A stretch of DNA of 64,000 bases from an uncultured Nitrospiraceae bacterium (GTDB lineage: Bacteria > Nitrospirota > Nitrospiria > Nitrospirales > Nitrospiraceae), in contig CAVPLT010000007.1 in the NCBI GenBank assembly GCA_963706325.1, positions 128,001 through 192,000 on the forward strand, given 5' to 3'. How positions within the stretch are numbered: the stretch's first letter is position 1; each line of letters begins with the position of its first letter. The position numbers were made by a program. Below are positions 27,001-33,000 of this stretch, one piece after another.

Positions 27001-30000
27001 CCGGACCTCGCCCAGCGCGCGCTCTCTTCCGGTGTTTCCGGGTATCTGCTGAAGAGCTCCGCAGCCGCGGAATTGTTCGAGGCGCTGCAGGCTGTCTGCT
27101 CTGGCCGACTCTATGTGTCGGGGTCTATTGCCAAGATGCTTGAGGATTGCTCCGCAACCGGCCGAAAAAAACAATCCCCGGAACGAACCCTTAGCGCCCG
27201 TCAGCGTCAGGTCCTGCAATTGTTGGCTGAAGGACATACCATGAAGCAGGCGGCGGCGGAGTTGGGGGTCACGCCGCGTACGATCGCGTTTCACAAATAT
27301 CATGTTATGAAGCTGTTTCGAATGAACTCCAACTCCCAGCTGATCCAGTTGGCTCTGACTGAGCGTCTAATCTCAAATCCCCCTCAATCCTGTTAGTTTT
27401 GACAGTTCCACATAGTCGGCATTGTGCGTAATGTGTCAGGACATCCACTGATCACATACAAAGGTGCAATGTGTGCGCTTCGTTCCGGATTCCTGCTACT
27501 CCGGGGCCGGGAAACAAAGAGGTTCGGCCTCGGCCCAGCGTCGTACTGGCCGACGACAATGCTTTGTTGCTGGATCGAGTAGCAAACCTGCTCGCTGAAG
27601 ATTTCGATGTCGTGGGCCTGGTGTCAAATGGCCGCGATTTGCTGGAGTTTGTCGACCGCTGCCATCCGGACCTGATCGTGTCCGATATTACGATGCCGTA
27701 TGTGGACGGGTTAGAAGTGGCACGCCAACTTCATGAGCGCCGGCGCGACCAGCAAAATCATCTTTCTAACCGTACACGACGATTCGGATTATCTACGGGA
27801 GAGCTTCTTAGTCGGGGCGATGGGATACGTCATTAAAGACAGACTTATTCCAGACCTGCTGCAAGCCATGCATGAAGTCCTGGCAGGACGGCCTTATGTG
27901 TCGGCCTCACCGAATCTACGCCTCTAACGGTGCACATTTCTCCTCCGGCGGTACGCACCTGTCACTTTTGACAGTATATATCTGCCCTGCGGACTTGTAG
28001 CATTGGCTGCAATTTTCAGGGGGACCACCGTCCTTATCATCCTTAGGGAGACGCAGGTGATCCATGCCAGATACTCATGAGAACGTCACACATCCAGAGG
28101 CAATCTTTACACCCCAAGGCTCACGACGGCGGTTTTTTCAATGGGTCACGAGGGGAGTGATGGGTATCATTGGATTTGCCGTAGGCATTCCGCTGATCGC
28201 GTATGTCGTGTCTCCTGCCCTCACGCGTCGCGAAAAAACCTGGGTTGATGTCGGAGGCGTGAACGAAGTGTCGGTTGACGAACCATCGCAACTTGAGTAC
28301 ATCGCGACCATTCGTGACGGGTATGTGGAAACCAAGACTCAGAAAGCGATATGGGCGATCAAACAGTCGGACGGACAGGTTACCGCCTTTTCTCCAATGT
28401 GCACGCACCTCGGATGCGGGTATACATGGGATAGAGGGGATAAGCATTTCAAGTGTCCCTGCCACGGCAGTGTGTTCGATGCCTCGGGGCATGTCCTAGC
28501 CGGCCCGGCGCCACGGAGCTTGGACCGGCTGCCGTCCAAAGTGGAGAATGGACGGCTCTTGGTTATCTACAAAGATTTCAAATCAGGCGTCCGGGAACAG
28601 ACCGAATTGTAAACAAATGAAATGTTCGAGAGAAAGACAACTCAGGGGGAGGACAATATGGATGTACGCGCCTTAGAGATCCGGGTCCGGAGGTTCACGG
28701 CAATCCTGGTTGTCGTCTTCGCCGTGGGGATTGGTGATCGATCCGCACTTTCGGCGACGCCCTCTACGAAGGGAGACCAGAAAACCGGAACCACCACGGC
28801 GAAATCCAGCCGTGCTCCCACGTCAATGCTGAAGGCGGTCCTGACCGACGCGCCGCATGTTCCTCCTCCGATCACACGTAAGCAACCTGCGAAGCTCATT
28901 GTGGAATTGGAGGTTACGGAGGTCGATCTTCCCATCTCCGAGGGAGTGGAGTACACGTTCTGGACCTTTGGGGGGAAGGTGCCGGGAAAGTTTATCCGTG
29001 TGCGGCAGGGCGACACGGTGGAGTTTCATCTCATGAACCATCCCGACAGCAGATTTCCGCACAACATTGACCTCCACGCCGTGACCGGTCCGGGAGGTGG
29101 AGCAGCCAGCAGCAATACGGCACCAGGGCGCCAGACGCAGTTCACCTTTCAGGCCCTCAACCCCGGCCTCTATGTCTATCACTGCGCGACCGCACCGGTC
29201 GGTGAACATGTGGCCAATGGAATGTATGGCCTGATTTTAGTCGAACCGACAGCGGGGTTGGCTCCGGTCGACCGGGAATACTATGTGCTCCAAAGCGATT
29301 TCTACACCGCGGGAAATTATCGCGAGCAGGGACACCAGGCCTTTGATATGACCAAAGCCATCGATGAACATGCGACCTATGTCGTATTTAACGGGGCCGA
29401 AGGAGCGTTGCTGGGCGAACATGCGCTCAAGGCCAAGGTTGGAGAGCGTGTACGTCTGTTCGTCGGGAACGGCGGACCGAACCTCGTGTCGAGCTTTCAT
29501 GTGATCGGCGAAATCTTCGATCGCGTATACCCCGAAGCCGGAATGCGTCCTCAGGAACAGGTCCAAACGACGCTTGTTCCAGCGGGCGGCGCTGCCATTG
29601 TCGAGTTCAAGGTTGAGGTTCCCGGCTCCTATAAGCTGGTGGATCACTCTATTTTGCGCGCGTTCAATAAAGGCGCCCTGGGAGAGCTAAAGGTCGAAGG
29701 GCCGGAGAACACATCGGTGTACTCAGGTAAGCAGGTCGAATCTGATTACAATGCGGCGAAATCCCTTGGCGTCCACACGGCGGCATCAATGACCCCTAAA
29801 GCGCCTCCCACGGATGATCCATCTGCACGTCTCGTTGCAGGGGGGACCCTGTACAAGACCTATTGCATGGGGTGTCATCAGGCAGAAGGACAGGGACTGC
29901 AAGGAACGTTTCCGCCGCTAGCGAAGTCGGACTACTTGACGGACAAGTCACGCGCAATCGAAGCGATCGTCAATGGTCTGACCGGGGGCATCGATGTGAA

Positions 30001-33000
30001 TGGGCAGCGCTACAACGGAGTCATGCCGCCAATGGGGCATCTGAAGGACGATCAGATCGCCGACATCTTGAGCTACGTTCGCCACTCGTGGGGAAATGAC
30101 GGAGAGGCCGTGTCGGCGGCGGAGGTGGCAGCGGTGCGGGCGAAAACCTCGCATTGAGGCGTGGTCTTTTCTCGGGTCATGCTGAGGAGAGTGTTGAGGG
30201 GCGGAGAAACGACCGGCATCCCGGAGGGTCACGATGGCGTCCCGCATATACGAGTGGTTTGACAGCCGCTTGAACTTGAAAGCGATGCAGAAAACGCTGC
30301 TGGACGAAGCGATTCCCGGCGGCGCCAGCTGGATCTATGTGTTCGGGTCTGCCACGCTCTTTATCTTCGGGCTCCAAGCCCTCACCGGGATGTTTCTGGC
30401 CCTCTATTACGCTCCGACGCCAGACCACGCGTATGACAGCGTGCAATTCATCGAAAACCAGGTGACATTCGGCTGGTTCGTGCGCGGCCTGCACCACTGG
30501 GGCGCCTCGGGGATGATCATTGCCGTGGGTCTGCACATGCTGCAAGTTTTCTTGTACGGTGCCTACAAACCGCCGCGCGAACTGATGTGGATGGTGGGCG
30601 TGGTGTTGCTGCTGATCGTCCTGGCCTTTGCGTTCACCGGTTATCTCTTGCCTTGGGACCAGACTGCCTACTGGGCCACGCAGGTCGGGATCAACATGGT
30701 CGGCACGGTGCCCCTGGTGGGTGATGTGCTCATTAAAGTGTTGCGCGGCGGCGAGACGCTGGGGATGCTCACCCTTTCACGGTTTTTTGCCGTGCATGTC
30801 TTGTTTCTTCCGGCGGTGATCGTCACAGGAATTGCGCTCCACCTGATCATACTCCGGCTGGTGGGACCGGCCGGTCCGTGGGATGAACGGAAAGCGGCGT
30901 CGCGCCGTGAAACTTTCTACCCCCGGCAGGTCTATATGGACGCCGTGGTGATGCTCTGTGTCTTTCTTGGGTTGGCGGCATTGGCGACGTGGGCGCCGTT
31001 CCCGCTAGCGGATAGGGCCAATCCGTCCGACACCAGCTTCGTGCCGGTGCCGGAATGGTACTTTCTCTTTTACTATGAGCTACTCAAACACATTCACGGA
31101 CCCTTTGAGCCTTTGGTCACATGGGTCTTGCCGATCGTGTTCGTGCTCATTGTCCTCTTCTGGCCATTGCTCGATTGGAAGAAAACAGTCCGGGCTCCGG
31201 CGTCGCGTCCCATCGGAATGGCGCTCGGCGTTGTGTTTCTGCTGATTGTGTTCTCACTGCTGGGCGTATCCTTGAAAAATCTGTACGCGGTGAAGCGCGT
31301 GGATCCAGGGATAGCGCACGGCAAGGCGCTCTATACCCAGTTCGGCTGTGCGGGGTGCCATCGGATTCATGGGGAGGGCGGGGCCTTGGCGCCGGACTTG
31401 TCCTACGTTGGTGATGTGCGTCCCGATCGCGAATGGCACGTGACACACTTGCGCGATCCCCAGGCTGTTTCACCCGGAAGCATCATGCCGAAGTTTCCTC
31501 TGACAGAGCCGGAATTGAATGACCTGACAAGCTATATGCTGAGTCTTAGACGCTCTTGACTTGATAGCCAATGGAGGACGATTTTTGGAACGAATGCGCC
31601 GGGAGGGTAGGCGAAAAGCAAAGGGCGCTGCATCCAAGCCCGCTCGCGCGCGTGCGCAGACCGGCATGAAAGCGCTGCCTCAGGCGGGACCGTCGGATGC
31701 CCTGGATGAGACGGGCGCAGTTCGAGACGTCGTCCAAAATCATCTCCTGCAGGTCGTGGCATTTCTCGCGATGGAACCCCCGACGACGATGTACCCGGAT
31801 TCCCTTCGTGACGAACGGGTCAAGGTCTTGCGCATGATCCCTCCTCTCACCAGCGGGAACATCGTGCGAGGACAGTTTAAAGGCTATCGTGATGAGCCAG
31901 GAGTGGCCCCGAAGTCGCGCGTTGAGACATACGCCGCAGTTCGATTCAGCATTGACTCATGGCGCTGGGCAGGCGTACCGTTTCTCATCAGGGCAGGGAA
32001 GTCTCTCCCGGTCACCATTACGGAAGTGTTGGTCAAGCTACGGAAGCCGCCGCTGAGCAGGTTGAGCGTCGACCGGAACTTCCTACGGTTTCGGCTCGGT
32101 CCTGATATAGGCATCAGTCTCGGCGCACGCGTGAAGAAACCAGGGTTTGAAATGGTCACGATGCCGGTAGAGCTATCGGTGGTCAAAAAACCGCAAGGCG
32201 ACGAAGTCGACGTGATGAAGGGGGATTCTATGTTGTTCGTGCGCGAAGATGGAGTCGAAGCCGCCTGGGCGATCGTCGATCCCATCCTCAACGGCCAAGA
32301 CGCACATGAGTACACTCCGGGCAGCTGGGGACCTGTGGAAGCCGATCATCTGGCTGCCGACCTGGGGGGTTGGCACAACCCTCAGAAGTACGAGTAGTCG
32401 GTACCAATGCCTAACTGGGCAGACGGCATTTTTTCAGCATAAAGAAGCGGATCAAACGTATTGACCACATTTGTTCAGAATGGCGAGCAAGACCCCATGG
32501 CAGTTTGAGAATACGGGCTTGAATGTCGAAGTACGAGAGTGCGCCTCCCACAACACGAAAGGAGAGATCCGATGTCTAGTTCAATGCATCATGTATTCGT
32601 TTCAGCAGCGACAGGTCTGGTTCTAATCTGCAGCGGAGCGGCGTGTGCGAAACAGAAGGCCGCCGTCGTTACGGTTCCTGAGGCTCAACGACCCGAGGCA
32701 CGACCTTCAGACATGAAGCACAAGGGTCTGGCCGGAGGATTTTATGCCGACAGAGACAAGAGTGACGATTGGTACTATGACTTCTATGAGGGTCCGTCAG
32801 CCGAGCGGACAAGCGATCGCACGGCAGTGGACGGGGGTGGTAGCAAGGTTAGGCCGGATGCGATAAAAGTTGCGGACAAGACCCACTTCGTTGATGCCGC
32901 GAAACCCGTCGATGCTCGACCATCCGATACCCAAGGACAGGAGTCGGCCGTCAATCAATATTACGATGACCCCTGGTTCTACGAGCCGCGGGATACCTCG

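Follow-up and report, generated by a model that had tools for sequence, protein, structure and literature searches.

The window analysed here is a stretch of 64,000 nucleotides from an uncultured Nitrospiraceae bacterium (contig CAVPLT010000007.1 of assembly GCA_963706325.1). It contains three intact ORFs on the same strand, encoding a Rieske protein, a copper-containing nitrite reductase (NirK) and a cytochrome b-c fusion, and we annotated them together with the neighbouring regulatory and flanking features:

24843..26735, + strand: PAS-domain HisKA_3 sensor kinase, part of a candidate regulator pair (domain search)
26743..27396, + strand: response regulator of NarL/LuxR type that may bind the box (domain search, box co-occurrence)
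27390..27405, + strand: second box copy, upstream of a receiver-domain gene that is broken (motif match)
27471..27836, + strand: truncated receiver-domain ORF, probably frameshifted (68 of 111 profile positions)
27959..27974, + strand: palindromic box of 16 bp (CTGTCA-N4-TGACAG type), a predicted activator site with its centre near -43.5
27998..28003, + strand: predicted -10 hexamer TAnnnT, 23 nt after the box
28064..28612, + strand: Rieske [2Fe-2S] subunit, QcrA2 type, 182 aa (PF00355; twin-arginine motif; one transmembrane helix)
28658..30157, + strand: copper nitrite reductase NirK of three domains, the C-terminal one a class I cytochrome c, 499 aa (TIGR02376, Cytochrom_C)
30234..31559, + strand: fusion of cytochrome b with a monohaem cytochrome c at its C-terminus, QcrB2/QcrBC type, 441 aa (Cytochrome_B 25-209, Cytochrom_C 360-438)
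31561..32397, + strand: glucose-6-phosphate dehydrogenase remnant, C-terminal domain only, directly 3' of the operon (domain search)

A preliminary description had placed the three genes at 28160..31559; the ORFs were found there, but the Rieske gene starts at 28064, about 100 bp earlier. Its domain assignments for the three proteins were borne out by the profiles listed above, and the same-strand ORF coordinates reproduced its intergenic gaps of 45 and 76 bp. The three genes are probably co-transcribed.

In the profile search, NirK matched the TIGR02376 equivalog at 356 bits against a cut-off of 296. The T1Cu ligands (H135/C176/H184/M189), the T2Cu ligands (H140/H175/H330), the catalytic D138/H281 and the haem ligands C403/C406/H407/M456 (CxxCH plus Met, in the C-terminal class I cytochrome c) are all present, and the gate or linker tyrosine Y364, which aligns with residue 323 of 3ziy (Tyr323 of RpNiR), is kept in all complete relatives aligned. 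All 14 ligand and gate positions were conserved in the window and in 9/9 complete relatives. The best PDB matches were 468-aa haem-Cu nitrite reductases, 3ziy (617 bits) and 2zoo (569 bits), both matched at full length over residues 70-508 of the 511-aa ORF. We take 3ziy and 4ax3 to be RpNiR of Ralstonia pickettii and 2zoo to be PhNiR of Pseudoalteromonas haloplanktis. Neisseria AniA is a two-domain outer-membrane lipoprotein with a lipoprotein signal, and the catalytic core of the window NirK resembles it, matching 1kbv at 438 bits. A signal peptide and a single hydrophobic stretch mark the N-terminus of the window NirK, where inspection of the sequence revealed no lipobox cysteine; the protein has no membrane anchor. 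With a third domain present, this cysteine missing and 3ziy and 2zoo outscoring 1kbv, a two-domain AniA identity was rejected, and the earlier label "AniA-type" gives way to the three-domain haem-Cu enzymes as the closest solved class. Judged by sequence, NirK is a member of this known haem c-Cu class (RpNiR/PhNiR), sharing its copper ligands, catalytic Asp/His, linker tyrosine and C-terminal haem c, and it is predicted to reduce nitrite to NO as a trimer. In a quick tree, from which RpNiR itself was left out, the NirK core fell in a Nitrospirales clade of 16 rows (SH-aLRT 99) nested within a clade of 81 rows (98) with three-domain enzymes of other phyla. The genome also encodes, as had been described, a second NirK, a short protein on contig C6 with 37% identity. 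The physiological donor of the three-domain class has been described as open (PMC13324648).

The Rieske protein retains the CxHxxC and CxxH ligand motifs, the twin-arginine motif and a membrane anchor; in its "SY" motif the serine is retained and the tyrosine is replaced by phenylalanine, and both forms are known with and without nirK. Its partner is an unsplit cytochrome b with PEWY at 273 and a fused monohaem c with CxxCH at 372, and H87/H101/H188/H203 are presumably the haem b ligands, as assigned from the known cytochrome b pattern. The pair is identified as an accessory second complex III (QcrA2/QcrB2, CIII_2 type). A second copy of the pair lies on contig C1 of the same genome (56% identity for Rieske, 74% for b/c), and the accessory b/c gene was present in 178 of 401 Nitrospirales genomes, mostly without a three-domain NirK. 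Other b/c copies adjoin SQR-like, SorA-like, transhydrogenase or sugar-phosphate genes. The accessory complexes of N. moscoviensis (CIII_2), Nitrospira sp. ND1 and N. japonica NJ1 likewise consist of a Rieske protein of ~182 aa and a fused cytochrome b/c of ~441 aa. They differ in what lies beside them: there is a dihaem cytochrome c gene in N. moscoviensis (NITMOv2_3959-3961), where nirK is missing, qcrA2 and qcrB2 are directly adjacent in ND1, and the cultured NJ1 carries nirK2 between qcrA2 and qcrB2, the gene order of the window (published supplement). In N. moscoviensis, CIII_2 is expressed during oxic nitrite oxidation, nirK is not beside it, and nitrate is reduced only to nitrite (PMC6606698).

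The preliminary description had called the operon a counterpart of the Rieske/cytochrome b-octahaem nitrite reductase pair of Nitrospira, in which petBC has been proposed as the quinol-oxidising donor (PMC12342949, PMC6606698). The analogy stands in that both systems encode a dedicated Rieske/cytochrome b with a periplasmic nitrite reductase, but they are not of the same type. The octahaem product is ammonium for assimilation, and the petBC proteins are distant (28-38% identity), sit on a separate long branch, differ in the Rieske motif and have a short cytochrome b (35-38% identity) without a fused c; an identification of the window's pair as octahaem-linked petBC was rejected. The petBC/octahaem genes form a separate locus in two genomes (G151 and G177); no such locus was found in the window's genome (G000), which gave no PF13447 match.

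We then considered how constantly NirK and complex III genes occur together. The earlier 80-locus comparison was reproduced: all 13 loci titled Nitrospirota carry Rieske and/or cytochrome b genes (10 with both, 3 cut by a contig end), whereas 0/67 relatives from other phyla, which include some short contigs, have either gene adjoining. This "all" fails more widely: the NirK of G354 (79% identical) adjoins neither gene, and among 41 close metagenomic loci there are 2 with no Rieske gene upstream. The three-domain NirK lies inside the operon in 10 of 11 carrier genomes. Among metagenomic loci, many of them near-identical, linkage was found in 39/41 at a core identity of at least 81% and in 0/38 below, this cut-off having been picked afterwards from a gap in the named loci (Nitrospirota 84-93%, others at most 80.3%); the preset cut-off of 76% gave 39/47. 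Gene order stayed constant over 72-86% NirK identity while the flanks varied. These counts support an operon that occurs in one Nitrospirales clade only and is conserved there. The spare respiratory complex III operon of one nitrite-oxidising Nitrospira branch encodes an NO-forming enzyme in its middle; neither any single part of the operon nor the general bc to cytochrome c to NirK route is new, and the linkage is patchy. Passage searches in PMC6349771 and PMC9038741 turned up no precedent for the arrangement.

Within the same cytochrome b clade, 9 of 20 members keep the Rieske and cytochrome b-c genes without nirK. Clear nirK deletion scars were seen in 3 of these 9; L203 and L206 look scar-like by eye, with non-significant scar tests (p 0.94 and 0.31). 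Trees and scars indicate one nirK insertion followed by repeated losses. An obligate nirK-complex III linkage was rejected on account of the nirK-less members and of G354, where nirK stands alone. All 11 carriers in the tree can be traced to a single insertion, so that inheritance accounts for most of the conservation. This leaves a credible, though less probable, reading in which nirK landed once and merely shares a promoter: it would be co-regulated, yet fed by the general periplasmic cytochrome c pool including NXR, with complex III serving other acceptors (cbb3 oxidase, reverse electron transport). The independent fates of the two parts agree with it, as do the varied neighbours of the other b/c copies and the position of the best G000 match to the small cytochrome c of related operons (see below), ~2 kb from a ccoN-like gene on contig C4. 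It accounts less well for the fact that two genera, with what seem to be two promoter types, have kept the insertion and its ligands intact, and for a second NirK type that also adjoins an accessory complex III (8 loci).

In its strong form, the earlier proposal amounts to a stable supercomplex in the membrane, a quinol:nitrite oxidoreductase in which NirK docks on the b/c subunit. The placing of nirK between two complex III subunit genes would suit such a complex, as would the lipoprotein-like signal of the NirK in the second arrangement. The operons of the window, L146, L150, L152 and L154 have no gene for a soluble cytochrome c, which also speaks for it. A fourth gene for a small soluble cytochrome c, placed after nirK, is found in most relatives (9 of 11 loci examined). 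This soluble carrier, the single N-terminal hydrophobic stretch without a lipobox in the window NirK, and the independent loss of nirK and complex III genes make the supercomplex improbable. Predicting a complex between the two cytochrome c domains without alignments gave a score of 0.02, which is no answer and carries no weight either way. Of the proposed membrane quinol:nitrite oxidoreductase, the conserved operon, the intact redox ligands and the downhill path were upheld; the dedicated complex and the direct hand-over were not, given an anchorless NirK, a soluble c in most relatives, the 9/20 members without nirK and the solitary nirK of G354.

In L147, L150 and L154 the box has a matching position upstream of the Rieske gene. 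The window holds 7 box sites against a mean of 0.0 in 200 shuffles, with a pattern derived from this genome, and 18 of the 33 sites examined have a TAnnnT at a distance of 22-24 nt; a generic sigma-70 scan gave 1 site where 2.4 were expected, an uninformative result. At least 4 boxes were present in 20 of 22 genomes with the closest response-regulator relatives and motif data. The surrounding island carries Usp, PPK2, phosphoketolase, glycogen phosphorylase and aldolase genes. Under low O2, N. marina shows higher levels of its Usp-linked clusters (PMC8115632), but lower rather than higher levels of its only NirK, which is a different NirK.

Gene order, intact ligands, conservation, the gain and loss pattern and the promoter box lead us to favour, with modest confidence, an accessory, regulated quinol to bc to cytochrome c to NirK branch that makes NO through a soluble relay, not a fixed membrane complex. 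Such a path runs downhill, and textbooks describe it as the way in which copper nitrite reductases are supplied. Rieske and cytochrome b would oxidise quinol at the Qo (PEWY) site, probably with Q-cycle proton translocation, as far as motifs can tell, and the high-potential electron would pass to the cytochrome c fused to cytochrome b. From there it may reach the NirK haem by transient contact, directly in the window or via the small soluble cytochrome c in most relatives, and then T1Cu, T2Cu and nitrite in a periplasmic trimer, giving NO. Nitrospirota use a high-potential quinone (bioRxiv 2024.07.27.605408), donors of copper nitrite reductases draw electrons from the bc1 complex, and the tethered haem of three-domain enzymes may accept electrons from membrane-bound haem c donors (PMC13324648). 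The classical denitrifier route (bc1 to cytochrome c550/c551 or pseudoazurin to two-domain NirK; AniA) follows the same path and chemistry (PMC13324648), whereas here a spare complex shares the operon with nirK and no NO reductase was found. The branch would most likely serve, under oxygen shortage, to dispose of reducing power drawn from stored glycogen or other donors; the electron path, its direction and the low-oxygen trigger are all put forward as predictions. Classical denitrifiers encode their housekeeping bc1 at another place and have an NO reductase as the next step. Against the favoured branch stand the clade members without nirK, the solitary nirK of G354, the many b/c genes without this NirK, the negative searches for NO-handling enzymes given below, the N. 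moscoviensis observations, the lower NirK of N. marina and the AU test of the two NirK groups.

Searches of 5 genomes for each of NO reductase, Hcp, globin and NosZ found none of them (G000 is 96% complete); they left out flavodiiron NO reductases, cytochrome c' and weak COX1 matches in G151 and G354, and for NosZ no control scored over the cut-off either. The COX1-family matches over the cut-off are ccoN-like. Since the search gave no NO reductase, NO would exit the cell or serve as a signal or an inhibitor of oxidases. The carrier genomes are those of nitrite oxidisers, which need reverse electron flow; the AMO search was run with comammox-type genomes as positive control, and these matched. 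Copper nitrite reductases are reversible, and the nitrite/NO couple lies at about +0.35 to +0.37 V. Reverse use, in which NirK oxidises NO to nitrite or takes NXR electrons and the complex reduces quinone uphill, scavenging neighbours' NO as an energy source, would meet the need for reverse electron flow, and without an NO reductase removing NO would be safer than making it. We regard it as very unlikely, because the potentials of the class (RpNiR: haem +290, T1Cu +266, T2Cu +255 mV; PMC13324648) lie below that couple and favour reduction, and the neighbouring genes for glycogen breakdown point to a supply of reductant.

The second arrangement comprises a separate two-domain NirK, with all copper ligands present, 3' of another b/c clade (8 loci, two families), which suggests repeated selection for the pairing; in an AU test with 35 rows, a common origin for both NirK groups was not rejected (p = 0.057). 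A wider and only tentative reading is that Nitrospirales twice wired a nitrite reductase to a spare complex III, creating an inducible, proton-pumping quinol:nitrite oxidoreductase for low-oxygen nitrite respiration to NO on glycogen, with NO released to neighbours and the fused cytochrome c docking haem to haem. If so, no membrane donor for a three-domain haem-Cu nitrite reductase would have been indicated by genetic evidence before this cytochrome c. The operon names a candidate donor chain for such enzymes and for the NirK of Nitrospira, whose role has been stated as unknown (PMC6606698, PMC8115632). An active branch could make canonical nitrite oxidisers a conditional source of NO in soils and treatment plants, and the same gene order in N. 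japonica NJ1 makes the proposal testable in culture.

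The operon consists of three open reading frames on one strand, separated by 45 bp (Rieske/NirK) and 76 bp (NirK/cytochrome b-c), and each start is preceded by a purine-rich ribosome site:

28064-28612, same strand as the other two, Rieske protein
28658-30157, same strand as the other two, NirK
30234-31559, same strand as the other two, cytochrome b fused to cytochrome c (cytochrome b-c)

Pfam and NCBIfam returned the domains named in the preliminary description, and its neighbourhood claim was reproduced: among the 80 loci with the closest NirK relatives, Rieske and/or cytochrome b genes were found at 13/13 loci titled Nitrospirota (10 with both, 3 truncated at a contig end) and at 0/67 others. 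The operon is a real, conserved but labile assembly of known parts. The arrangement itself is not described in those portions of the literature that we searched, where we found no paper on nirK inside a Rieske/cytochrome b operon; papers behind a subscription, among them the first N. moscoviensis octahaem proposal, lay outside this coverage. For the cultured N. japonica NJ1, Data Sheet 2 of PMC5767232 lists qcrA2 (NSJP_2511), nirK2 (NSJP_2512, 492 aa) and qcrB2 (NSJP_2514) in separate sections, and the order Rieske-nirK-cytochrome b is visible in these locus numbers, making it open to testing in culture. In the main text, a term search gave a single mention of NirK, in a figure legend. NJ1 was not added as an extra carrier because it may be among the genomes searched. 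One NirK relative (P0057) is attributed to Nitrospira sp. KM1; searches of text passages and the supplement of PMC7522533 showed no discussion of it.

The cytochrome c tail ascribed to the window NirK was confirmed by a domain match, but its AniA-type classification was not: the closest solved structures were the three-domain haem-Cu enzymes 3ziy (617 bits) and 2zoo (569 bits), with the two-domain 1kbv lower (438 bits). Copper ligands, the catalytic Asp/His pair, the linker tyrosine and haem ligands were complete in this protein and in 9/9 complete relatives. Because its N-terminus has a single hydrophobic stretch and no lipobox, the enzyme is expected to be a soluble trimer in the periplasm. 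The fusion has precedents, since PMC13324648 reports tethered domains in some 30% or more of nirK denitrifiers. In a quick tree built from 113 catalytic cores (ten duplicate, fragmentary or frameshifted loci excluded beforehand), Nitrospirales NirK grouped as a single clade (16 rows, SH-aLRT 99) that was surrounded by three-domain enzymes from Myxococcota, Pseudomonadota, Bacteroidota and others, a placement consistent with a single acquisition from outside.

The Rieske protein carries both ligand motifs and a twin-arginine motif, and cytochrome b-c carries four haem histidines, PEWY and a fused CxxCH domain. This pair is the Nitrospira accessory complex III; its counterpart in N. moscoviensis is CIII_2 (PMC6606698). 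The octahaem-linked petBC pair is distant and of a different type. It formed a separate locus in two genomes (G151 and G177), and a search of the window's genome did not find it. The fused b/c gene was matched at E <= 1e-130 in 178/401 genomes of the order and, in the same search, in 28/30 of the window's genus. The window's genome also has a main complex III and, on contig C1, a second accessory copy without nirK. Behind this C1 copy (L001:3958-11481) come genes for thioredoxin-like and OsmC-like proteins, a SorA-like molybdoenzyme, cytochromes with two and four haems and a superoxide-dismutase-like protein, some of them named by eye or after relatives. A short frameshifted cytochrome b fragment adjoins tRNA-Phe and tRNA-Ser genes at C2:96815-97020.

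Full-length three-domain NirK was present in 11/401 genomes: the window's own, 4/4 of genus g17 and 6/21 of genus g6; an additional copy, in G276, is split by an assembly gap. G300 and G402, both unpublished, count only towards denominators and tallies (NirK, b/c, box and regulator-relative counts), and no claim depends on them. Ten of the 11 carriers showed the order Rieske-nirK-(c)-cytochrome b-c; in G354 nirK stood alone. Among 79 metagenomic loci, many of them redundant, Rieske and/or cytochrome b occurred at 39/41 with core identity of at least 81%, a cut-off set post hoc, and at 0/38 below. Between nirK and cytochrome b, 9/11 loci with a visible gap carried a small gene for a monohaem cytochrome c that has a signal peptide (2 of the 9 copies broken); the window has no such gene at that position. 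About 2 kb from a close relative of this cytochrome c (56%) on C4 lies a ccoN-like gene split over two frames by frameshift or sequencing error (C4:978356-979613). Since only 1/39 genomes of the window's genus has this NirK, and both the NirK and cytochrome b trees group the window genes with g17, the sequences point to lateral transfer.

We hand-picked 60 further b/c loci among 150 places listed, plus two octahaem-linked loci. A quick tree of 73 cytochrome b sequences placed all 11 nirK-containing loci in a single 20-member clade (SH-aLRT 98) together with 9 loci lacking nirK, 3 of which (L200, L201, L207; p = 0.005 each) kept a significant nirK 3'-end remnant after the Rieske gene; outside the clade, 0/16 loci had one. 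The tree and these remnants indicate that nirK was inserted once and deleted several times, with the complex retained. L208 (G365) has, at nirK's place in relatives, a 128-aa frame between Rieske and cytochrome b, presumably akin to four-helix-bundle intervening-sequence proteins. In a separate clade of 17, eight loci from two Nitrospirales families (L155, L220-L226) had the order Rieske, cytochrome b-c, then directly a two-domain NirK whose signal is lipoprotein-like and whose copper ligands are all intact. As NirK architecture, gene position and cytochrome b clade all differ, this suggests an independent second pairing, but a single origin of the two NirK groups was not rejected by an AU test run on 35 cores (p = 0.057). 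In N. moscoviensis, a 490-codon nirK (NITMOv2_0073) lies beside insertion-sequence genes, far from CIII_2 (PMC6606698 supplement).

The preliminary description proposed a membrane quinol:nitrite oxidoreductase. The nitrite/NO couple lies near +0.35 to +0.37 V. Haem and copper centres lie near +255 to +290 mV (PMC13324648). At these potentials, electrons passing from quinol to nitrite by way of the Rieske centre and c-type haems run downhill and would power a Q-cycle. The Nitrospirota quinone is methyl-plastoquinone, calculated between ubiquinone and plastoquinone (bioRxiv 2024.07.27.605408). We cautiously favour a relay from quinol via Rieske and c-type haems to NirK and nitrite; a stable supercomplex of NirK and complex III seems improbable, and reverse use of the chain slightly more so. 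The window's genome has three NxrA-like genes, probably NxrA, of the molybdopterin family with twin-arginine signals; two encode about 1,150 aa, and the third frame (C7:709561-712569, about 1,000 aa) is shorter and possibly broken. An NxrA-like gene also occurred in all four g17 genomes and G356. AmoA was absent from the window's genome, with comammox-type genomes matching as control. Since haem-copper oxidase matches above cut-off were ccoN-like, Hcp, globin and NosZ were not found in the five genomes searched for each, and cytochrome P460 was not found in the window's genome, any NO formed would be either an end product or a signal.

The Rieske start is preceded, at a distance of 89 bp, by a 16-bp palindrome that is followed after 23 nt by a TAnnnT hexamer, a geometry shared by 18/33 sites examined. 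The window's genome has 16 such boxes, 13 of them inside C7:138-238 kb; copies in the window lie at 10178, 17089, 22447, 27390, 27959, 36871 and 61953. All 11 carriers had 9-23 boxes each versus 0-1 for a reversed control, and at least five occurred in 25/401 genomes. A box stood directly upstream of the operon only in the window's genome and three g17 genomes; in g6 carriers, inspection by eye showed a standard -35/-10 pair or else a gene lying upstream in its place. That nirK is simply co-regulated with complex III, without a special electron link, is possible though rather unlikely. At least four boxes occurred in 20/22 genomes, related rather than independent, with motif data and the nearest relatives of the NarL-type regulator encoded alongside (26743-27396). 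The roughly 100-kb stretch C7:138000-238000 with its 13 boxes is probably the regulon of this regulator. Its genes include Usp, PPK2, aldolase, phosphoketolase, glycogen phosphorylase and transketolase, and this content, with N. marina proteomics (PMC8115632), suggests a low-oxygen signal. The island is rich in lipoproteins, Ysc84-domain proteins, sulfatases and glycogen/pentose-phosphate genes. An ATP synthase gamma subunit gene (35658-36554, minus strand) points away from a promoter that has a box; the window frames scanned include no further ATP synthase gene. Two polyphosphate kinase 2 genes (37014-37829 and 54972-55787) have equal length (271 aa) and identical Pfam scores, suggesting a recent duplication.
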